64,000 nucleotides of DNA from a virus: the IMG/VR virus record IMGVR_UViG_3300034418_012856, positions 1 to 64,000 of that record; one strand, 5' to 3'. The stretch's first letter is position 1; every line of letters starts with the position of its first letter. Below the pieces are notes generated by a model. The model did no database searches, was not told the origin of the DNA, and was given only the letters and a program-made list of their open reading frames with translations. The translations under genes and the position numbers were made by a program. Shown here in pieces: positions 23,474 through 46,564 of this stretch.

Positions 23474-23536
23474 TTTTTTCTAAAATTTTGACTTTAGTTG
23501 GAATATATAATGGAAAAGTTTCAATATCGCAGGTGT

Positions 23537-23544
23537 GATATATA
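23537..23544 (+). promoter_or_regulatory. putative late promoter GATATATA
   Basis: Upstream of ATG 23568; a second variant GAATATATA lies at 23501. Confidence 0.6.
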
Positions 23545-23567: not shown

Positions 23568-26303
23568 ATGGACTTACTTAATCAATTAAAAACTCTTAGG
23601 GAAACAACCACTAACCCTGAAGTTAAATCTATTTGCGAATCTCATATTAATAAAATACAAAACGGGGAGAACGTAAATGAATCCGCAGTCCTTGAATCTG
23701 TTGATCAGGTTGTGAAGGAAAGCGAAGGCGAAAGCGCTGTGAATCCTATGGAGATGATCAGACAACAAGAAATTGAAAGATCTAAATCTGCAGCTCAGAG
23801 ATTAATGGAATCTTGGGGAGGCATTGGATCATCAACTTCAAGAAATTCCGGATCCTATGTAGATGCTGAAAAGAAAGAGATCGATAACGAAGTTAATAAC
23901 ATCTCCGAAAGCTTAAAAGAAGTTGCTGAGAAAGACCCAGCAGCAAAGGCTTTTGTTGACTCACAAACAGTAAATAACTTAGGAGTTTATGAGTCTATTC
24001 TTTCTCTTAAGGGCACTGGAATTTACGAGCACCCTAACGTTAAGATCCTTTGTGAAAAATATACACACCTACTGAAAAGCAATAACGTCCCTGAATATCT
24101 AGTTGCTGAATCTTTTGTACAGGAACTTCAGAACTTTAACTGGGACAATAAGATTAAGTCTGCAGTAGAATCTATTAGTGAAAAAGTCCAATCACACCTA
24201 CCTGAAATTGAGGTATCTAAAGCTCTTTACTCGATCGAGAAAAGCGCTGGTGCTGATTTCTACTCACCAGTAACTGAGTCTTTGAATAAGTGGTTAATTT
24301 CAGAGAACAAATCAGTTGCTCTACTTTCTAAGGAGCTATCAAGGTGGTCTTTTAACCCAACGGTTAGAAATCTTGTTAATTCACTTTCTTTGATGGAGTC
24401 ATCAGAAAGTAAATTAAGTATTCCAGTTAATAACGGAAATTCTTCAGTTAAGAAAGTTTACTCTCCGGTACATGTAAGTGGCGGTAAAACCGTGTTTACC
24501 ATTGGTAATAATGTCTTTGAAGGAAACTCTGAAGGAATTAAGAGGCTTAATAGAGCAGAATTTGAAGCTCTTCCAGCATCTTTTAGATCTTTATTAGAAT
24601 CTTTCTATTCTCCTATGGTTAAGATTAACGAAAATGGTCTTAGCTTCTATGTTGGAAACAGCAGCTTTAAGCTTGTTGAAGAAAACGATTCAGTTTCTAT
24701 CTACTCGAAAGAAACAAAGATCAACTTCAGTGACCTTAATCAACTTGCTAAGCAAGTAGCTTTGGAGATTTCTGGTAGCTTAGGAGTTAATGAAGCTAAA
24801 GCGGTTTCAGATCTTATTAATTTATATGAGAATTTCGAAAATATCGTTGAGTTGGATTTTGCTAAGAGATTGGAATCAAAGGTATTTGAAGGTGTATCTG
24901 TAAACCTTATTAAATGGAACTCAAACCTTTACCTTAACAGGATAAACGAGGGAATGAATGAGAATTCTCTATTTAAGGTTAACGGATCACAAGCTACCAA
25001 CATGGTTAAGGATTTGATGAAGTACGACATCTCTGAAGGATTAACAGAATTTTTGGATGGCGAGAACAGAATCAAGTCTATTATGCTTAACGATAGAAAG
25101 CAAATCATTGATAACATTTCTATTGTCGAGAATGAAATCAATAAGATTTCACATGCAATGGCTACAAACCCTCTTTACGAAAACTCAAAAGAAATGCACA
25201 GAGCCAAGCACATGCTTGAGCAAGAGCTTTCTTCATTGAGGAAAAAATGGGCGGCTGTTAACGAGGAGATCGAAAAGATTGAGTCAACTGCAACAGAGGT
25301 AAACGACTTAAACGAGGACGAGAAATTTACTGTAGGCGACTACGTGAAAGTAAAAGAGTCTGGTAATACTGGTAAGGTAATTTCAGTCGATAGCACTTCT
25401 GGATCTTATACAGTTCTTATGGACAACGGAAGAACTGGTGATTTCAGAATGGACGAGATCGTTGATATCGAAGAGGCATTAAAATCTGCTGGTGAAGAAA
25501 ACCAAGAAGCAGACGAGACTCAAGAAGAAATCAAGGAGCAAGAAATGGCAGTAGCTCCTGAAAAACAAACTGAATCTGCAAAAGATAAAACTCCTGCTGC
25601 TACACTTAAGGCTAATACTTCTGCAGCTCCTTCTGCTAAGGATCAAGAAGATGCTGGTAAAAAAGACATCGAAAAGGAAGATCATGCTAATTTAGAGGAA
25701 GCTCCAGAAGGTAGCGAGAAGGAAACCAAATATGACATAAAGTTAAAAGATTCTTTGGTTGACAAAATGGGATACAACGTGAATGAAAATTCTGAAGACG
25801 TTGAGTCTACTGAATCTGAAATGGCTGAGGCTCCTGCTGACGGTAACACTGAGTTATCCGAAAGAGACGTTGAAAACACGGATCAAAACCTAGCAGAAGC
25901 ACCAGGTGGAAGAGATCATGCAGATTACGATGTAAAAGCTGCTCATGCAGAGGAGAATAATCCTGACATGGTTAAAACAGACCCTGAAATGGCTTCAGCT
26001 CCTGGTGATGGCACAGATAAAGAAATGCATCACGAGGTTGGTAAAGAAATGGGATACAATCTTGATGAAGCCAACGACGTTGAAAAGACAGATCAACAAC
26101 TTGCAGTAGCACCAGGTGGTGAGCACAAAGCAGAATATGATGTTGAAGTTGCTAAAGCTGAAAAGGCAGTAGCGGATGTCATGAAGACAAACCAAGAATT
26201 GGCTGAAGCTCCTGCAGCAGGAACTGAAGCTGAAACTGATGTTGAGGTAAACCCAGAAATGGGATATAACATTGACGAAAGCGAAGAGTCAAAAAAAAAC
26301 TAA
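23568..26303 (+). CDS. large acidic prohead core / internal head protein with SH3-KOW-like domain and C-terminal repeats
   Basis: Many [LIV]xE sites; FTVGDYVKVKESGNTGKV; repeats (M/L)AxAPxG and MGYN(V/L/I)(N/D)E; ATG 23568 preferred because GTG 23535 overlaps the promoter motif. Confidence 0.55.
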   Translation: MDLLNQLKTLRETTTNPEVKSICESHINKIQNGENVNESAVLESVDQVVKESEGESAVNPMEMIRQQEIERSKSAAQRLMESWGGIGSSTSRNSGSYVDAEKKEIDNEVNNISESLKEVAEKDPAAKAFVDSQTVNNLGVYESILSLKGTGIYEHPNVKILCEKYTHLLKSNNVPEYLVAESFVQELQNFNWDNKIKSAVESISEKVQSHLPEIEVSKALYSIEKSAGADFYSPVTESLNKWLISENKSVALLSKELSRWSFNPTVRNLVNSLSLMESSESKLSIPVNNGNSSVKKVYSPVHVSGGKTVFTIGNNVFEGNSEGIKRLNRAEFEALPASFRSLLESFYSPMVKINENGLSFYVGNSSFKLVEENDSVSIYSKETKINFSDLNQLAKQVALEISGSLGVNEAKAVSDLINLYENFENIVELDFAKRLESKVFEGVSVNLIKWNSNLYLNRINEGMNENSLFKVNGSQATNMVKDLMKYDISEGLTEFLDGENRIKSIMLNDRKQIIDNISIVENEINKISHAMATNPLYENSKEMHRAKHMLEQELSSLRKKWAAVNEEIEKIESTATEVNDLNEDEKFTVGDYVKVKESGNTGKVISVDSTSGSYTVLMDNGRTGDFRMDEIVDIEEALKSAGEENQEADETQEEIKEQEMAVAPEKQTESAKDKTPAATLKANTSAAPSAKDQEDAGKKDIEKEDHANLEEAPEGSEKETKYDIKLKDSLVDKMGYNVNENSEDVESTESEMAEAPADGNTELSERDVENTDQNLAEAPGGRDHADYDVKAAHAEENNPDMVKTDPEMASAPGDGTDKEMHHEVGKEMGYNLDEANDVEKTDQQLAVAPGGEHKAEYDVEVAKAEKAVADVMKTNQELAEAPAAGTEAETDVEVNPEMGYNIDESEESKKN

Positions 26304-26479
26304 GAAAAATACTTAGTAAAGTTTGGGCTTTTGCTCCAACGGGAAAGGATCAGTCTGAAACACCAGAGCCTTTCGTCGATGAGATAAAAGATAAAATGAG
26401 CGTCGCCCCAGATGGAAAAGAACCAACTGGAGACACGCTCATTTCTTCTGAAGATGGATCTGAAGAGGATAAGGTCTAG
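26291..26479 (+). other. A9C slippery site and -1-frame C-terminal extension (59 codons)
   Basis: TCA AAA AAA AAC TAA; -1 frame open 26300-26479 reading LRKILSKVWAFAPTGKDQ...KMSVAPDGKEP...EEDKV*. Confidence 0.65.
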
Positions 26480-26533: not shown

Positions 26534-26893
26534 ATGGCAAAGGCTTATGTAAAAAATAAAGACCTGTTGGCTGCTATTCTAGAGTCAAAGGAAAAAGGTG
26601 AGCTAACACCAGAGACCGTCGAGATGTTTGGTTTAATGGTTCAAGGCATTTCAAAAAAGATGGCTTACCGTGACCCAGACGATAAAGCTGATTGTATGGC
26701 TTTTGCTATGGAAGACCTTTGTAAATATTGGAACAGGTTCAATCCAGAAAAGTCGAATAATCCATTTGCATATTATACACAAATTGCAAAAAATGGGTTT
26801 GCAAAGGGGTGGAAGAAAATACATCCACCAAAGGCACCAAAAACGATTCCATTCTCTTACATAACAGGCGATGACAATACATATAATGTATAA
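26534..26893 (+). CDS. gp55: late-transcription sigma factor (T4 gp55-like, short)
   Basis: YVKNKDLL and RFNPEKSNNPFAYYTQIA match gp55 motifs. Confidence 0.8.
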   Translation: MAKAYVKNKDLLAAILESKEKGELTPETVEMFGLMVQGISKKMAYRDPDDKADCMAFAMEDLCKYWNRFNPEKSNNPFAYYTQIAKNGFAKGWKKIHPPKAPKTIPFSYITGDDNTYNV

Positions 26894-28016: not shown

Positions 28017-29645
28017 ATGGCCGGATTTAACGAAACACCAGAAGGGAACCCGATATTCCAAAGGATTAGAGAGTCTGTAAAGTCTCTCAGCAATTTTGGT
28101 ATGAGGTATGGTGATATGGTCATTAAAAATTCACAGGCCATTGGATCGATAGAAGCTGATTTTATGAAAAAGCAATCTATCGATGATGAGAGCTTGCTTT
28201 ATTCCCTCGGTAGACAAGACACGACCACAAGACAATTTATCAGCTACTATGATAAGGATTACGCAGGAAAGAGAGATTATCTTAGGAAGTTTGCTCTGAA
28301 TCCTGAGATAGAGTACATCTTGGATACTGTCTGTGACGAAGCGATAACTTTTGATTCATACAACTTCTTTGCATATCCAGCATTTTTAAATCTTACCGAT
28401 GTAAAGGATAAGATAAAAAACCGTCTGGACGAGAATTATAAGAATTTGTATGACATGTTCGGCTTCGGCGATGATATCAGCGGGTGGCAATACTTTAGAC
28501 AGCTAATGGTCGATGGCTTTCTTGCCTTTGAAATAGTTTATGATGACAAAGGTAAGAAGATTATTGGATTTAAGGAATTAGATGCAACTACTCTAATGCC
28601 ATCTGTTGAAAAGCAGCCTGATGGTACTTATTTGAGTGTTTGGTATCAATACCCAAAGGATATCAATAAGAGGAGGATGCTATATGACTCCCAGGTGATT
28701 TACATATCATTTGCTAAGGGAAACACAGTTTCTAGGATTAGCTATGTCGAAAGACTTATAAGGCCCTACAACATTCTTAGGATAATCGAGTACACTAGGG
28801 TAATATGGTCGGTTATGAACGCATCGTTCAGAATGAAAATGACTGTACCGATTGGATCGAGATCTCCACAGAAGTCTATGCAAACCTTGGGTGAGCTTAT
28901 GAGTATCTATAAGGAAGATATTAGGTTCAATGATGAGAGTGGGGAGTTAACAGTAGATGGCAGACCTAAGATACAGTTTTATAAGAATTATCTAATGCCT
29001 TCTGGTGTTAATGGAACACCAACGATAGAACCTATTAATAATGCTGGCCCAAACTTAAACGATCCCCAGCCTCTTGCTTATTTCTACGATAAGCTAGTTC
29101 AGGAATCTAAAATTCCTTTTTCTAGGTTCCAAGGTCCTGATGGTGGATCTATAGGAAACTATTCGAATGGTGCAGAAGGATTGGATAAAGAGGAAATAAG
29201 GTTTGGTAAGTTTATTAGTAGGCTTAGATCTATCTTCCAGGATCTTTTGGTTAAGCCACTTTGGATTCAAATGTGTAAGGATTTTCCGGAGTTGGAGAAG
29301 GATTACTTATTTAAGAGTCAACTGGGGTTGGAATATGTTTCTGATAATCCATTCAGGGTTAATCAAGAGATAGAAACCATGCTTAAAAAGAAAGAGCAAA
29401 TTGATGGTATGTATGCTCTTACCGATGATAGCGGTGAGCCTTTCTTTTCATTGGCTTATCTAATTGAGTCTCATTTGGGAATGACTGAAGATGATATAAA
29501 GGCAAATAAGGAAGCTATCAAGAAAAGGAAAGAGGAGGAAAAAAAGAAAGCTGACGAAGAGGCTAAATCTTCGGAGGAAGAACCCGCAGAGGAAGCTCCA
29601 GAAGAATCTCCGGAGGAAACCCCGGAAGAACCCCCACAAGAATAA
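28017..29645 (+). CDS. gp20: portal protein, paralog 1
   Basis: PEIEYILDTVCDEAI, FRQLMVDG, SYVERLIRPYNILRIIE, YKNYLMP, SKIPFSRF, EEIRFGKFISRLR. Confidence 0.88.
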   Translation: MAGFNETPEGNPIFQRIRESVKSLSNFGMRYGDMVIKNSQAIGSIEADFMKKQSIDDESLLYSLGRQDTTTRQFISYYDKDYAGKRDYLRKFALNPEIEYILDTVCDEAITFDSYNFFAYPAFLNLTDVKDKIKNRLDENYKNLYDMFGFGDDISGWQYFRQLMVDGFLAFEIVYDDKGKKIIGFKELDATTLMPSVEKQPDGTYLSVWYQYPKDINKRRMLYDSQVIYISFAKGNTVSRISYVERLIRPYNILRIIEYTRVIWSVMNASFRMKMTVPIGSRSPQKSMQTLGELMSIYKEDIRFNDESGELTVDGRPKIQFYKNYLMPSGVNGTPTIEPINNAGPNLNDPQPLAYFYDKLVQESKIPFSRFQGPDGGSIGNYSNGAEGLDKEEIRFGKFISRLRSIFQDLLVKPLWIQMCKDFPELEKDYLFKSQLGLEYVSDNPFRVNQEIETMLKKKEQIDGMYALTDDSGEPFFSLAYLIESHLGMTEDDIKANKEAIKKRKEEEKKKADEEAKSSEEEPAEEAPEESPEETPEEPPQE

Positions 29646-29654
29646 TAATATAGA

Positions 29655-31259
29655 ATGGCAGGTTTTTTAGATTATGTAGCAGAAAGATCCTTCTTGGGTA
29701 ACCTGTATAAGAATTTATCCAAGGTTGGAAGGTTTGGAATGGAATACGAAGATATGGTAATTCGTAATTCCCAAGCTGTTGGTGCTACTGAATCTAACTT
29801 TTTCAACGAACAGGGAAGTGGATTTACTGAAAACAACGCATTTTATTGGACCCTTGGATATCAAGATACGAAGGTTAGAAAATATATTGCCTACTTCGAC
29901 AAGGACTACATGGGTAAAAGAGACTTCCTTAGGAAATTCTCTTTGAATGGCGAAATTGATTTTATCCTGGATACACTTACTGATGATGCTATCAATTACG
30001 ATGACAAAAATTTCTTTAGTTATCCGTCTTTAGCTAACATTGATCTAAAGCCTAATGTGCTTGATAAGGTAAACGAGACATATCAGAATTTGTATATGCT
30101 GTTTGGCTTTCAGCAAAGCATATTAGCTTGGCAATATTTTAAGCAGTTTTTGATTGATGGGTTTTTGGCTTTTGAGATTGTTTATTCTACTGATGGCAAG
30201 AAAATAGTTGGATTTAAAGAATTAGATCCAACCTCCCTTCAACCCGCTACAGAACAGCAGCCAAATGGTGAATTCCAACAGATTTGGATACAATACCCAG
30301 AGGATAATAAAATGACAAGGAAGCTCAGAAGTGAGCAGATCATTTATCTTTCGTATGCTAAAGGAAATACAATTTCTAGGGTAAGCTATGTGGAGAGACT
30401 TATAAGGTCTTATAACATTCTAAGAATCATGGAAAACACCAGGGTTATTTGGAATGTGATGAATGCTTCTTACAGACTTAAGTTTGTAATCCCTGTTGGT
30501 TCACAGTCTCAGCAAAAAGCGATGCAAACCCTTGGACAGCTAATGTCTATCTATAAAGAGGAAATGGAAATTAATGATTCCTCGGGTGAACTAACAGTAA
30601 ACGGTAGACCTAAGGTTCAGTTTTATAAGAATTATCTTTTCCCTGAGAAAGATGGACAATCCCCACAGATTGAAACCCTTGATCCCAATGGACCAGATTT
30701 CAATGTTATGGATAATGTTATTTACTTCTATAACAAGCTTAAACTGGATTCGAAAATACCTTATGCAAGGTTTGCTTTCCGAAATGGTACCCCGGCTAAC
30801 TATCAAATAAGTATAGATCAGCTAGAAAGGGATGAAATTAGGTTTGAGAAATTCTTAACAAGACTAAGATCGATCTTCCAAGAAATATTGGTCAAACCTC
30901 TTTACATACAAATGTGTTTGGACTTCCCAGAATTAGCTAAGGATAGATCATTCAAAGCAAATCTGGGCCTAAGTTATGTAAGAGAAAACCTTTTCGAGGA
31001 GTTTATTCAATTGCAAAACTATACAAAACGCACCCAGTTTATAAATGACCTTGGTGAAATGAAGCAAAAGATTGGCGAGGAAGAGGAATCTTATTTTGAC
31101 AAAGAATTCCTGATTAAAAGGTATCTCGGTTTAACTATGGACGAATATAAGAAGAACGAGAAATATAAGGAAGCTGAAGCTAAGCTTGCTGAGGAAAAAG
31201 CTAAGGAAGCCGGATCTGAGGGCGGAGAGGAAGGCGGAGGCGAGTCATTCACCCTATAA
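29655..31259 (+). CDS. gp20: portal protein, paralog 2
   Basis: Same motifs: EIDFILD, FKQFLIDG, SYVERLIRSYNILRIME, YKNYLFP, SKIPYARF, DEIRFEKFLTRLR. Confidence 0.88.
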   Translation: MAGFLDYVAERSFLGNLYKNLSKVGRFGMEYEDMVIRNSQAVGATESNFFNEQGSGFTENNAFYWTLGYQDTKVRKYIAYFDKDYMGKRDFLRKFSLNGEIDFILDTLTDDAINYDDKNFFSYPSLANIDLKPNVLDKVNETYQNLYMLFGFQQSILAWQYFKQFLIDGFLAFEIVYSTDGKKIVGFKELDPTSLQPATEQQPNGEFQQIWIQYPEDNKMTRKLRSEQIIYLSYAKGNTISRVSYVERLIRSYNILRIMENTRVIWNVMNASYRLKFVIPVGSQSQQKAMQTLGQLMSIYKEEMEINDSSGELTVNGRPKVQFYKNYLFPEKDGQSPQIETLDPNGPDFNVMDNVIYFYNKLKLDSKIPYARFAFRNGTPANYQISIDQLERDEIRFEKFLTRLRSIFQEILVKPLYIQMCLDFPELAKDRSFKANLGLSYVRENLFEEFIQLQNYTKRTQFINDLGEMKQKIGEEEESYFDKEFLIKRYLGLTMDEYKKNEKYKEAEAKLAEEKAKEAGSEGGEEGGGESFTL

Positions 31260-41780: not shown

Positions 41781-44492
41781 ATGTTATTAGTATTCAGAAA
41801 AGGGTTGGAATATGATGGTAGCATGAACGGCGAACCGTCGGACAAAGAAGCCAATATATTTCCACTAATGTCTTTGCCTCTAGATATGGAGGGAGAAGAA
41901 ACGGATTTAAATGATTTCCAGTGGTGGGCATATTCCGATAAATGGAAAGAGTGGCTAGAAGATAATCCTAGAGAATGGCAAGCAGAATCCAAAACGTCAG
42001 ACTTTGATAAAGCTGAAGCTGTTCTTGAAAACATGGTTACCTCTAAGGGTGCTATTTCTGAATATGTCTCAAGTCAAGCTAAAAATATTTGGAACAACGG
42101 TAAAGTATCTTCTTTCAGCGATTATGTAAAGCTTTTGGAAGCTGAAGATGAATCCGGATCTTCCGAATCATTCAAGAAATTTGTAAAGTTAGGGTTTGCT
42201 CTTGAAAAACTTGCTAAAGACGGCAAATTGAAAGACAAACTAAAAATAGAAGATCTTGAGGAAGACAAGGAATATTCCATTGTTATAGATCCTATGAACG
42301 AGGCTGGCGAACCCATACAGGAAGCCAGGCAAGCTATTAGAATTAAAAAGCTGGACGAATCAGCAGGTTTTATCCTTGCTAATTTCGATTATAGTATTCC
42401 GGTAGGTAAAGTTAAGGATACTGAAAACTTTCTTGATAAGGTTTCTGATTTTGCAAAAGATGTTGCTATAGCAGGTGCAGGATTTGCAGGCCTTTATGCT
42501 GTTGCTTACGTCGGCGGCGGTCTGTTATCATCTTGGGTTCTAATGAAGTCAGCTCGTGGAATTTATAGAACCTTCTCAAGGGGTAGAAGAATATATGGTG
42601 CAGTTCAAGCAGCAAGAGGTTCTAGTAGTGCTATTAGAGGTGGATTTGCAACTGTAAAAAACTTTGCAACTAGAGCCTTTGGTAGAAGAGCAGCTCAAGG
42701 AGCTTTAACTAATGCCGCAAGAATAACTTTACCCTCTGGTGCTTTTGTCGAGGGTGGACTTGCTTACTCAACAAGAGCTACTGGTAATGTTCTTCTAAAA
42801 GGAGCAGCAGAGCAATCGGTTAAAGCTGCAGCATCAAGAGCAGTTGCACAAGGTGGTGCCCGTGCAGCAACCGCTATCGGGGCAAGAGCAGCAGCCGGTG
42901 CAGGAGCAGGTGCTCTTGCTGCAGAAGCATCTAATCCTGTAGGATGGATAATGTTAGCAGTTCAAGCTGTAGGTTCTGGAATAAATCAGATTTGGAATTG
43001 GTACAGCGATAAGCAGGCACCTAGATATAGTGAGGTTGAAGATTTTGCTTATGGTACATTTAAGCCTAAAAATATTCCTATCGGAAAATCAATCACTGTT
43101 TGTTGGACAAGCGATGGAGGAGCAGGCTGGGGTGAATACATCTTGGATATAATAACAATGAGCAAGGATGACACAAGGACTACTATGGAGATAGTTAAGA
43201 TTGGTGAACTTGAAGGTAGATCTATTTTCATGGTTTTGCAGATCAATTCGGAAATGTTCCAGAAAGCTTTGCAAGATAACGATCTAATGCTTATGTCATT
43301 TAGCAATAGTGATGTATTTGAAAGGGGATATCTAGATAATGATGATTTGGAGTTCCAAACAATCCTTATACCAGATATTACTGAGCTTACAATCGCTACT
43401 TCATTTGTTGGTTACTCAACCTGGGACGAAATGGAGGAGGCTTATAATAAAGCCCCAGACAATCCAGTATATGTTCCAAAGGATGCTAAGAAAACTTACG
43501 AATTCCATTATGTGGATTCTGAGGGCAGGGATGTAAACGTAACCGGTACACTAGTTAGTGAAAGTGAACTTGAAGGAAGTGTATTGAAAGAGCTTATACC
43601 TGGTGAAGCGGATGTTGTTGAAGAATCTTTTGACGGTGCAAGAGAATTTGAGGATCTCTTAAACGAAAGTAAAGTGGTTTCATTCTCTGATTTTTCTATG
43701 AGAACCTCTAATTTAATAAAAGAGGAAGAAAACGAAGATCCTGCACAAGCAGAAGAAAAACCAGCAGAACAGACAGAAGAAACCCCAACTGAAGATGAAA
43801 ACAAGGAACTTGAAGGATATGAGGCTGAACTTGATGATGTAATCAATTCTGGAGTTGGCTTAAAGAAAACAACATATTCTAGAATTCCAATTGTTTCTTA
43901 TGCGGTAAATACAATCAGTTTTGTAGATCCTAATATCAATGAATCCCCTGGGGAATTTTCATACTTCTTAGTTGGTGATCAAAGTGTAGATCCCAAACCA
44001 AACCAACCTATTTTGGTAGAGTCTGCTTCTGATGATCTAATCGGAGAACCAAGATTCGGTTTGAAAAAATACGTACCACCCACTGAGGAAGATGATGAAG
44101 GTACTATTGTAGAACCAGACGAGGAAGTAATTGATATAGAAGATGTTGATAAAAAGAGAACTAAAATTTCTACAGATCGTGCTGATGTGCAGATAAAAAG
44201 TGGTTCTAGATCACTCTCTATTAAAGATCGTGATATAGAAGGTGGAATAAGTATCCTTGCCGAGTTTGGGACTGATGACCTTAAGAGAAAGCTTAATATC
44301 GAAGACTGGGAAGAAATTTCTAGCGTCAAGGTTAGAGAAAATAGTGATGGTGAGCCAATCAAAGTAGTACTTAAGAATAGGTTTGCAAAAATGGGTGATA
44401 GAAGAAGGGTTCTTAGAAAAGGAGAACAAGGATTCAACACTGCACTGAAATTTGCTAACTCAGTTGAGGATGGTATATCTTTCTCTGGATAA
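41781..44492 (+). CDS. large probable virion/ejection protein with Ala/Gly-rich hydrophobic core
   Basis: Acidic flanks; central A/G/R-rich region bounded by two TM-like segments (IAGAGFAGLYAVAYVGGGLL; SNPVGWIMLAVQAVG). Confidence 0.5.
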   Translation: MLLVFRKGLEYDGSMNGEPSDKEANIFPLMSLPLDMEGEETDLNDFQWWAYSDKWKEWLEDNPREWQAESKTSDFDKAEAVLENMVTSKGAISEYVSSQAKNIWNNGKVSSFSDYVKLLEAEDESGSSESFKKFVKLGFALEKLAKDGKLKDKLKIEDLEEDKEYSIVIDPMNEAGEPIQEARQAIRIKKLDESAGFILANFDYSIPVGKVKDTENFLDKVSDFAKDVAIAGAGFAGLYAVAYVGGGLLSSWVLMKSARGIYRTFSRGRRIYGAVQAARGSSSAIRGGFATVKNFATRAFGRRAAQGALTNAARITLPSGAFVEGGLAYSTRATGNVLLKGAAEQSVKAAASRAVAQGGARAATAIGARAAAGAGAGALAAEASNPVGWIMLAVQAVGSGINQIWNWYSDKQAPRYSEVEDFAYGTFKPKNIPIGKSITVCWTSDGGAGWGEYILDIITMSKDDTRTTMEIVKIGELEGRSIFMVLQINSEMFQKALQDNDLMLMSFSNSDVFERGYLDNDDLEFQTILIPDITELTIATSFVGYSTWDEMEEAYNKAPDNPVYVPKDAKKTYEFHYVDSEGRDVNVTGTLVSESELEGSVLKELIPGEADVVEESFDGAREFEDLLNESKVVSFSDFSMRTSNLIKEEENEDPAQAEEKPAEQTEETPTEDENKELEGYEAELDDVINSGVGLKKTTYSRIPIVSYAVNTISFVDPNINESPGEFSYFLVGDQSVDPKPNQPILVESASDDLIGEPRFGLKKYVPPTEEDDEGTIVEPDEEVIDIEDVDKKRTKISTDRADVQIKSGSRSLSIKDRDIEGGISILAEFGTDDLKRKLNIEDWEEISSVKVRENSDGEPIKVVLKNRFAKMGDRRRVLRKGEQGFNTALKFANSVEDGISFSG

Positions 44493-44557: not shown

Positions 44558-46564
44558 ATGAACGAGTCTTTATTGAATGAAAACCTCCTTTTTATTCTTG
44601 AAAAACAAGATAATAATCTTGATGTTTCAAAGGATGGTGCTGAAAATGGCTATGTACTGAAAGGTATAGCAGCTCAATTTGGCAAGGAGAACAATAACAA
44701 TAGAATATACGAGGAAGGTGAATACCTGCCTCACCTTGAATATCTAAAGGATAAGATAGGACAGAAGAGATTGGTTGGTGAATTAGATCACCCCGAAAAA
44801 TTCGATGTCTCTCTTAAAAACATTTCTCACGTTGTTGAGGATCTAGTTTATGATAAAGACGGAAGAGTATTAAACATTAAAGTTCGTTTGCTTGACACTC
44901 CAGCAGGACAAATTGCTAAAAAGCTTGTTGATGCTGGTATACCTCTTTCTATTTCATCTAGAGCAGCTGGAAATGTTGGTCCGGATAAGAAAGTCCAGAT
45001 CAAAAAAATCTTTACATATGATCTAGTAGCTGATCCTGGTTTTCAGGACGCACAGCTCGAGAGGGTTTACGAAAGCGCTGGTTTTGATGCTTTTGAATTT
45101 GAAGAAAGATCAAAAAAGTCTGTAGTAAACAACTTAGAGTGTGTAAACGAATCGCTAGGGCTAGAAAATGAATCTAGTGTAAAGATATATAAAGTTGAAA
45201 ATAGCGAAGAATTCGAAAAAATCCTTAATCAAGACAAAAATAAATCCAACATTATGGAGGCCAACAAAGAATATGTTACTGCTGACGAGCTTAACAAGTA
45301 TTCTATCTTTTTGAAAAATAAGATGGATGAGCTGGAAACGCAGATTTCTGAAATGAAACAACAAGAAGCTCAGGTATCTGAGAGTGAAACTGACAGTGTA
45401 GACTGTAAAGCTCTGGAAGAAAGAGTTGCTAAACTTGAAAAGTATTCAGAATATCTTGCTGAAAACCTAGAGAGTGCTATTAAGTACGGTGAGTACCTAG
45501 CAGAAAATCTAGATAGCAGCATTACTTATTCGAAGTATTTAGCTGAAAACCTAGATAAGACTATTTCTTATTCTAAGTATTTGGCTGAAAATGTTGATAA
45601 GGGTATTTCATATTCAGAGTACGTGGCTGAAAATGTTGATAAGGCAATCGATTATTCTAAGTATCTTGCTGAAAAGCTAGATGATGGAATTCAATACACA
45701 GAGTATGTTGCTGAGAATCTTGATAAGAACATCGCTTATTCAGAATATCTAGCAGAGAATGTTGATAAGAACATTGCTTACTCTGAATATTTGGCTGAGA
45801 ATCTTGATAAAGGAATTTCTTATTCTGAATACCTTGCAGAAAACCTTGATAAAGGTATTGCTTATTCTGAGTACATCGCAGAAAAGCTTGATCAAGGTAT
45901 CAACTATACAGAGTACCTTGCAGAAAACCTAAACAAAGGAATTGCTTACTCTGACTATTTGGCTGAAAAGCTAAATGGAAACATAGCTCAAACTGAAGCT
46001 ATTCACGAAAGTGCTAAAACTCAAGTTTCTCCTTCTCTAAATGAGAACGCAAGAGAAACTGCTGAAAGCGCTTCACAAACTGAATTGGTCGAATCAGGAT
46101 TTGCTGGAGATTACGAAAATCTCGGAAGCAAGATTGATTCTCTAATTGAATCGGTCAAGACACAAAAGACTGAGGAAAACATAAACGAGGCTAATACGAA
46201 AGTACAGCCAACTGCTCAAACACAAAAAGCAGATGAGGCAATCAACGAAGCCGAAGAAACTGTGGTAGAATCATCAGGTCACAAATTTATTGATGAAATG
46301 CCAGAAGATTATGCTCCGATTTGGGAGTCACTAAATGAAAGTCAAAAGCAATCAATCATTGCACAATCAGCTTTCTATAATTTAGAGACAAACTATCAGA
46401 TCAAGAATTTCTGGTCAACTCGTCAGCTTGGTGCTAAGCCAGTAGGTTTACAGAAACTTCAAGAAAGCCAAGAAACACCAGAGCCTAAGACGGCTTCAAA
46501 CCCCCAGGGGTACTCAAATGATTACCTTAATTGGGTCGCTAAGTCGCTCGAAGGTAAGTTTTAA
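44558..46564 (+). CDS. prohead protease (gp21-like) fused to a scaffold-like repeat region
   Basis: ENNNNRIY, GELDHP, SHVV, LLDTPAG, ISSRAAG, YDLVADPGF; long coiled-coil C-terminus; immediately precedes the major capsid gene. Confidence 0.88.
   Translation: MNESLLNENLLFILEKQDNNLDVSKDGAENGYVLKGIAAQFGKENNNNRIYEEGEYLPHLEYLKDKIGQKRLVGELDHPEKFDVSLKNISHVVEDLVYDKDGRVLNIKVRLLDTPAGQIAKKLVDAGIPLSISSRAAGNVGPDKKVQIKKIFTYDLVADPGFQDAQLERVYESAGFDAFEFEERSKKSVVNNLECVNESLGLENESSVKIYKVENSEEFEKILNQDKNKSNIMEANKEYVTADELNKYSIFLKNKMDELETQISEMKQQEAQVSESETDSVDCKALEERVAKLEKYSEYLAENLESAIKYGEYLAENLDSSITYSKYLAENLDKTISYSKYLAENVDKGISYSEYVAENVDKAIDYSKYLAEKLDDGIQYTEYVAENLDKNIAYSEYLAENVDKNIAYSEYLAENLDKGISYSEYLAENLDKGIAYSEYIAEKLDQGINYTEYLAENLNKGIAYSDYLAEKLNGNIAQTEAIHESAKTQVSPSLNENARETAESASQTELVESGFAGDYENLGSKIDSLIESVKTQKTEENINEANTKVQPTAQTQKADEAINEAEETVVESSGHKFIDEMPEDYAPIWESLNESQKQSIIAQSAFYNLETNYQIKNFWSTRQLGAKPVGLQKLQESQETPEPKTASNPQGYSNDYLNWVAKSLEGKF
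45434..45979 (+). repeat. 13 x 42-bp (14 aa) coding tandem repeat
   Basis: Unit xIxY(S/T)(E/K)Y(L/V/I)AE(N/K)(L/V)Dx, codon-degenerate at the DNA level. Confidence 0.92.

Follow-up and report, generated by a model that had tools for sequence, protein, structure and literature searches.

Results

A nine-A run at the end of a phage gene

We analysed a stretch of viral DNA of 64,000 nucleotides (nt; IMG/VR record IMGVR_UViG_3300034418_012856, positions 1 to 64,000; hereafter the window) in which a gene for a protein of 911 amino acids (aa) ends in an uninterrupted run of nine A (A9), followed at once by its stop codon and by an open reading frame (ORF) in the -1 frame. Recoding of some kind very probably takes place at A9 and gives the gene a short product and a C-terminally extended one. 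A preliminary description, made from the letters of the window, had proposed programmed -1 frameshifting or transcriptional slippage with two isoforms as the outcome, and comparative evidence from related loci supports this. As to the mechanism, we favour slippage of RNA polymerase over ribosomal frameshifting, with a probability of about 0.5.

Direct reading of the gene end gives the codons TCA AAA AAA AAC TAA at 26289-26303, with the A-AAA-AAC heptamer and the 9-A run as first described. The run occupies 26291..26299 (all features located in this way lie on the + strand) and holds two heptamers, A_AAA_AAA (26291-26297) and A_AAA_AAC (26294-26300), both in phase with the 0 frame. The 0-frame stop codon TAA (26301..26303) lies directly 3' of the run. 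An open -1 frame begins 8 codons 5' of the run and reaches a TAG at 26477-26479, which bears out the earlier count of 59 open codons downstream, and the +1 frame is closed after 4 codons. Translation, alignment and substitution ratios all support the resulting -1 extension (26300..26479; 59 codons plus TAG, LRKILSKVWAFAPTG...MSVAPDG...SEEDKV). Across the site the -1 product reads ...SKKK|LRKILSKVWAFAPTGKDQSETPEPFVDEIKDKMSVAPDGKEPTGDTLISSEDGSEEDKV, with 59 codons past the run, and the long isoform would have a length of about 970 aa.

The presence of A9 at this place is beyond chance. It is the sole A or T run of at least nine in the 83.8-kilobase (kb) contig, where about 7 are expected under a first-order Markov model. 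Elsewhere in the window the tripeptide KKK is encoded as AAA AAA AAA in 0 of 12 instances, every one of these triplets having an AAG codon. Long A/T homopolymers are depleted in the contig as a whole (83,837 nt): there are no T runs of at least eight, four A8 runs, and one A9.

The run and its layout are conserved among relatives

A total of 186 related loci carrying the extension motif were collected, representing 92 distinct local sequences with main-protein identities of 40-98%. The run was A9 in 184/186 loci and A10 in 2/186, and both A10 loci still require a -1 shift. The codon before the run was TCA, CTA, TTA or GTA, its final base always A, and the base after the run was C, T or G. The preliminary description had asked whether homologues share a KKN-stop followed by a -1 ORF, and this was found: the typical layout, NNA AAA AAA AA[C/T/G] T[A/G]A with a -1 ORF of 49-62 codons, was present in 173 loci, the 0-frame TAA or TGA stop falling 1 nt past the run in each. 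Three loci cut by contig edges (L110, L123, and L124) match the standard A9-CTRA pattern, and in clade 1 a second, shorter A run lies 3' of the stop. At the protein level, more than 150 homologues share a KKN or KKK C-terminus; it was present in all 120 homologous proteins listed, which are 41-96% identical, and the residues preceding it were highly variable.

The -1 frame carries a coding signature

The -1 peptides share the pattern L-K/R-x-x-L-S-K/R-V-W-x-F-A-P, P-F-V-D, and K-M-S-V-A-P-D-G-K followed by an acidic end, and among the aligned peptides A-P...A-P-x-G is invariant. Alignments of 43-53 distinct sequences revealed entropies of 0.86/0.71/1.31 at codon positions 1/2/3 of the -1 frame. 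The median ratio of nonsynonymous to synonymous substitution rates (dN/dS) over the whole ORF was 0.28 in the -1 frame versus 1.13 and 1.34 in the other two frames. Both halves of the ORF are constrained, with medians of 0.33 for the first and 0.46 for the second. No start codon (ATG, GTG or TTG) lies between the upstream stop and the first AP motif of the -1 frame in any of 53 distinct sequences (0/53), and no terminator-like site was found inside the -1 ORF. A tblastn search of the extension against the phage collection gave no match. The alignments and the lack of a start codon strongly support the view that the -1 ORF is protein-coding and conserved, and that a frameshift would be needed to reach it in the 173-locus layout.

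The extension also continues the repeat of the protein to which it would be joined. The motif [LMFIVW][ASE]xAP occurs 7 times in the tail of the main protein, twice in the 59-residue extension, and twice in the other ~19,000 residues of the window. A profile of the extension aligns with residues 679-721 of the main protein (hhalign expect value (E) 6.4e-5, probability 64%), and an internal double-AP unit that resembles the extension is encoded at 25602..25730 (TLKANTSAAPSAKDQ...LEEAPEGSE); BLASTP of the extension against this unit gave E 0.08. The match to upstream repeats noticed in the preliminary description was thus borne out by the motif census and the profile alignment.

A deep clade encodes the same peptide in other ways

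In a deep clade with main proteins ending in ...HGYNSTMNE(E), four variants were found at the site. Five loci (L188-L191, L193) are in-frame fusions with the sequence TCA AAA AAA AAC CCC AGT, where the long form is the default and a -1 slip would end the protein after KKKPQS. In three others (L132, L181, and L182) the sequence is GTA AAA AAA AAT CTT AGT and the peptide belongs to a 74-aa stand-alone gene, coding in one frame for a short helix, KKN, and the extension, with the stop of the main gene 11 nt upstream. The A10 version (L184, L186) reads TCA AAA AAA AAA GCT TAA, for which a -1 shift is still required. The fourth variant (L187, L192), GAA AAA AAA ACC, has a changed phase; it also requires a -1 shift, and its 0-frame stop lies 35 nt past the run.

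Because deep lineages encode the same peptide in frame, we regard the extension as a real translated product. A9 is retained in all in-frame fused and stand-alone loci, so that the homopolymer persists even where the peptide can be reached with no shift; this suggests that the run itself serves to yield two forms. The preliminary description had named in-frame fusions without a slippery run as the finding that would speak against it; the in-frame versions observed are few, belong to a deep clade, and keep A9.

Three singletons, P0123, P0122, and P0125, lie on contigs of 2480, 988, and 1821 nt, respectively. Judged from its protein sequence, P0123 (79 aa) looks like the in-frame small ORF of another clade. 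P0122 reads ..TTQKK-LSRNF and is possibly C+A8; its closest loci have A9, and its own N-terminus had no matching locus. The layout of P0125 is backed by the related loci L132, L181, and L182. In the distant phage LR756500 the homologue (L081, LR756500.1 230160-238461) is a protein of 617 aa without the acidic tail and the extension.

Explanations that dispense with recoding

Homopolymers are in principle prone to error, and the preliminary description had named an assembly error, with a true A10 and one continuous ORF, as the alternative to recoding. The chance of this is negligible: the 184 loci with A9 were assembled independently and come from a wide range of studies and habitats, which excludes it for practical purposes. 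When metagenome contigs were scanned for exact matches to the clade-1 site, 34 had A9 and 0 had A10, and A9 with no indel was seen in all the Logan contigs, which derive from three metatranscriptome runs and an independent DNA run. No protein longer than 105 aa contained the extension among 5.8 billion clusters, and in a profile search of 1.84 billion representatives it appeared in short ORF calls only, with no full-length fusion. An alternative genetic code was also considered, the relatives being Lak phages, and rejected: 5/57 ORFs end in TAG, and under table 11 every ORF is intact. Readthrough of the TAG would add just 7 codons to the extension.

A different possibility is that no programmed recoding occurs in the lineage of the window, the -1 ORF being a relic of an in-frame tail that the ancestor had and that a 1-nt deletion cut off, or its shifted translation being noise only. 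The fused and stand-alone versions in deep lineages do make a frameshift mutation a plausible origin of the layout. A relic would decay, however, and the ORF is open and under purifying selection in at least 86 distinct sequences with 40-98% identity, in which the A run is never interrupted; we therefore judge this improbable. The extension could instead be translated separately, by internal initiation or by re-initiation past the TAA, as the 74-aa stand-alone gene and the internal Met that most sequences have ahead of the second AP motif would allow. Against this, no ATG, GTG or TTG precedes the conserved first half in any of 53 sequences, that half is itself under selection (dN/dS 0.33), and in several lineages Leu or Phe replaces the internal Met. 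Separate translation is accordingly very unlikely, and recoding at A9 is the reading that we carry forward.

Polymerase slippage or ribosomal frameshifting

Under standard decoding, translation would stop at the TAA after the run and yield the short form, a 911-aa product with the C-terminus ...SKKN. In some expression events, a fraction of the total, the frame would instead move by -1 within the run and 59 further codons would be read, and the long form would add two hydrophobic-x-x-A-P motifs and an acidic end to a tail that holds 7. In the mechanism that we favour, the host RNA polymerase, directed by the gp55-like late sigma factor of the phage, would insert an extra A on the T9 template, and the A10 transcripts would then be decoded normally as ...SKKKLRK.... 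A contribution from ribosomes slipping by -1 on the in-phase A_AAA_AAA or A_AAA_AAC is possible. As for the role of the extension, our guess is that it adjusts how many short linear motifs a virion or prohead protein carries.

The run keeps to nine A though seven suffice for an in-phase heptamer. Among the invariant A residues is the third base of the Ser, Leu or Val codon ahead of the run, a synonymous position, and such codons end in A in only 27-38% of cases in this gene, where AAA:AAG usage is 55:45. The run also survives a change of phase (GAA AAA AAA ACC in L187 and L192). Polymerase slippage is favoured because all nine A are invariant, the synonymous position included, and because they are kept through the phase change. 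The depletion of long A/T runs elsewhere in this genome points the same way. Bacterial RNA polymerase slips efficiently on 9-A/T runs, a length that matches the RNA-DNA hybrid (PMC5009743), and our length criterion for slippage, a homopolymer of about nine or more, was taken from the same source.

The rival mechanism is purely ribosomal: tandem transfer RNA slippage on A_AAA_AAA or A_AAA_AAY, by which the long form would arise from unedited A9 mRNA as a small, fixed fraction, perhaps helped by the adjacent stop. We hold this to be possible, and a serious contender, though well short of even odds. An in-phase slippery heptamer is present in every architecture, and a conserved -1 ORF with a coding signature and no start of its own abuts the site. 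The insertion sequence (IS) IS1 uses A_AAA_AAC with no known stimulator, and A_AAA_AAA/G are the commonest heptamers of IS elements (PMC4066793). In E. coli, however, A_AAA_AAC is an inefficient heptamer, and motifs that lack a stimulator reach just a few times background (PMC4066793). The stimulators that are usual, though not universal, at ribosomal sites were not conserved here: RNAalifold on 22 diverse sequences around the site gave 0 pairs, no conserved downstream hairpin or pseudoknot was found, and there is no conserved Shine-Dalgarno-like element near the site, GAGGAG occurring upstream in one clade only. Moreover, the two A beyond the heptamer, one of them synonymous, are invariant in 184 loci and kept through the phase change, which ribosomal slippage leaves unexplained.

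One candidate stimulator in the window was tried and rejected. A perfect 12-bp complementarity between 26270-26281 (CATTGACGAAAG) and 26362-26373 (CTTTCGTCGATG) brackets the slip site, and the 161-nt fold has z = -3.3. This stem is kept only in close relatives. It was rejected because it is conserved only where the encoded residues (IDES, PFVD) are conserved, and it is probably coincidental. A small AU hairpin at the site of the window is not conserved either.

Several points weigh against polymerase slippage. The contigs from RNA libraries all have A9, as unedited mRNA would; assembled contigs hide a minority of A10, and such libraries may include DNA. Any A9 run includes an in-phase A_AAA_AAA, so a ribosomal shift fits the sequence as well. 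The 0-frame stop abutting the run in 173 loci is unneeded for polymerase slippage and could pause ribosomes. In one study, the RNA polymerase of E. coli is reported to slip more on T runs than on A runs of the coding strand (PMC6260861). As to the polymerase itself, gp55-like and extracytoplasmic function (ECF)-like sigma factors are encoded in the 83.8 kb of genome and imply the use of a host core polymerase, no search for a phage RNA polymerase having been made. The comparison shows the site, its conservation, the coding signature and lack of a start in the -1 ORF, and the correctness of the assembly; that slippage happens, by which machine, with what proportion of isoforms, and to what end for the tail, we infer. 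The RNA contigs break at varied points (26380-26464), from which no inference was drawn.

Polymerase slippage at A9 lends itself to a wider proposal, which we make tentatively and at slightly less than even odds: A9 may be a site of host-polymerase slippage under the late sigma factor that acts as a two-way isoform switch, mostly adding the tail and, in the in-frame clade, removing it. If this is true, a fixed-length homopolymer is kept across gene architectures to set the short:long ratio of a virion-associated protein. We know of no earlier description of programmed transcriptional slippage in a gene from the structural module of a tailed phage, and this would then be the first. In any case the family offers a natural experiment, one peptide being provided through a -1 shift, an in-frame fusion or a separate gene with A9 in all three, and it is suited to asking whether phages set isoform ratios by polymerase slippage. 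It would also reveal what a disordered tail with varying numbers of short linear motifs does in assembly or infection.

Comparison with known recoding systems

Late phage genes with short and C-terminally extended isoforms are known, among them the capsid gene of T7 (10A/10B). The tail chaperone G/GT of lambda is likewise a late gene with two such isoforms, presumably made in a set ratio (PMC5009743). Both differ from the present gene in their slip sites (G_GGA_AAG and others), in the ribosomal mechanism, which has been shown for them, and in belonging to other families; here, unlike in either, a motif from the tail of the protein itself recurs in the extension. The closest heptamer is that of IS1 insA-insB', where A_AAA_AAC acts with no known stimulatory structure and gives a low-level fusion product (PMC4066793). 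In IS1, however, A6C suffices and the product is a transposase, whereas here the full A9 is invariant and the protein is a late phage protein.

Among cases of polymerase slippage, dnaX of Thermus thermophilus (tau/gamma) shares with our gene a run of nine A in the mRNA sense, transcription by a multi-subunit bacterial RNA polymerase, two isoforms per gene, and stops placed in alternative frames (PMC5009743). Slippage yields the shorter product in dnaX; here it would yield the longer one in most lineages, with truncation only in the in-frame clade. Slippage has also been demonstrated for dnaX, whereas for this late phage gene we infer it. Type III secretion genes of Shigella (spa13, spa33, mxiA, and mxiE) are likewise subject to slippage on A/T runs, and 25-30% of the spa13 product has a functional C-terminal extension (PMC5009743). 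These are unrelated proteins encoded by cellular or plasmid genes, in contrast to the short, disordered, motif-bearing tail considered here. The kind of event is thus known; what is new is this gene family, with its exactly conserved A9 and with frameshifted, fused, and split forms side by side.

The main protein is likely a late virion or prohead protein

The main 0-frame ORF (23568..26303) ends ...ESEESKKN. Its listed start, a GTG at 23535, overlaps a GATATATA motif, and because homologues begin at ATG 23568 and the motif lies at 23537-23544, we took ATG 23568 as probably the true start, giving 911 aa. The motif, which resembles a late promoter, is 24 nt upstream of this ATG. The window contains 16 copies of GATATATA, all on the + strand, against 3.6 expected, and 0/100 shuffles reached 16. 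The sites include 5442, 10651, 10703, 16506, 23537, 27947, 44524, and 48375, and for most copies a structural gene (neck, sheath, tape measure, portal, protease) follows 25-70 nt downstream. GATATATA is probably a late promoter element recognised with the gp55-like sigma factor, and its presence upstream of the 911-aa gene therefore places that gene in the late class.

AlphaFold2 predicted a folded part at about residues 110-640, helical and beta-rich, with a coiled coil and an SH3/Tudor-like domain, and disorder from residue 645 (predicted local distance difference test score, pLDDT, below 50). The disordered acidic C-terminal tail (25500..26300) carries 7 hydrophobic-A/S/E-x-A-P and 3 GYN[LIV]xE motifs. 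For the whole protein there was no match to a Pfam or PHROG family, apart from one sub-threshold SH3-like Pfam match, and no sequence match in PDB. Foldseek against PDB returned Tudor/SH3-like matches only (residues ~590-640), the neighbours in BFVD were uncharacterised myovirus proteins only, one of them from Tenacibaculum phage PTm1, and a search of the ESM Atlas returned only the protein's own kind. A literature search on the structural proteins of PTm1 yielded nothing usable.

The orthologue at locus L132 (IMGVR_UViG_3300010885_086412, 1194-3989) contains two inserted PG_binding_1 domains (E = 2e-26), at the place of a low-confidence loop in the protein of the window. This hints at contact with the cell wall, as for virion proteins that are ejected. 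Prohead proteases of the T4-type S77 family cleave by the rule L/I-x-E. The GYN[LIV]xE and LAE-AP motifs of the tail fit this rule, matches of this sort coming cheaply in acidic sequence, and an S77 prohead protease is encoded in the window (ORF 44558-46564, Peptidase_S77 31.2 bits, cut-off 27) beside the gene for a Gp23-family capsid protein. The promoter-like motif, the linkage to gp55, gp4, gp2, and portal genes, the PG_binding_1 domains of L132, and the tail motifs that follow the S77 rule together make it likely that the main protein is a late virion or prohead-associated protein. Searches of Pfam, PHROG and PDB revealed no homology to the known core proteins gp22, IPI-III, Alt, gp67 or gp68, and we do not place it among the T4-type prohead core or internal proteins.

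Genome context and neighbouring genes

The window covers the structural and replication region of a T4-like phage, with genes for terminase, sheath, two tube proteins, a tape measure protein, gp55-like, gp4-like, and gp2-like proteins, two gp20 portals, the S77 prohead protease, and the Gp23-family capsid protein. The next gene after the main gene, assigned by family searches, encodes the gp55-like late sigma factor (26534..26893), and the apparent gap of 230 nt ahead of it is filled by the extension. By capsid and main protein, the nearest database phages are the 462-kb uncultured LR756500 and the Prevotella Lak megaphages, and the order of homologue, gp55-like, gp4-like, and gp2-like genes is also found in LR756500. 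Runs holding the stretch came from freshwater, estuarine, salt-marsh, and marine samples.

Gene callers have missed the long isoform in all of these phages. Billions of predicted proteins include not one full-length long form, and the gene family, together with the 180-230-nt "gap" behind the gene, is therefore mis-annotated throughout a widespread group related to the Lak megaphages.

Some further features of this region were noted. LR756500 has a TnpB/OrfB-like ORF of 411 aa just upstream of its homologue (L081) and a 537-aa ORF inserted between the gp55-like and gp4-like genes. In the window, the ORF that immediately precedes the protease gene (903 aa, 41781-44492) has a central segment that is Gly/Ala/Arg-rich and probably membrane- or fibre-like; this ORF had no family match beyond a weak one to tape measure proteins. 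In the protease ORF at 44558-46564, the S77 domain (about the first 190 residues) is fused to a C-terminal part of some 470 residues in which a 14-residue unit (YSEYLAENLDKGI-like) is repeated in tandem about 14 times, and this part is probably a built-in scaffold. The two T4-type portal (gp20) genes stand in tandem at 28017-29645 and 29655-31259, 9 nt apart; both are intact, they have diverged, and they match Portal_T4 with E of about 1e-59 and 1e-61.

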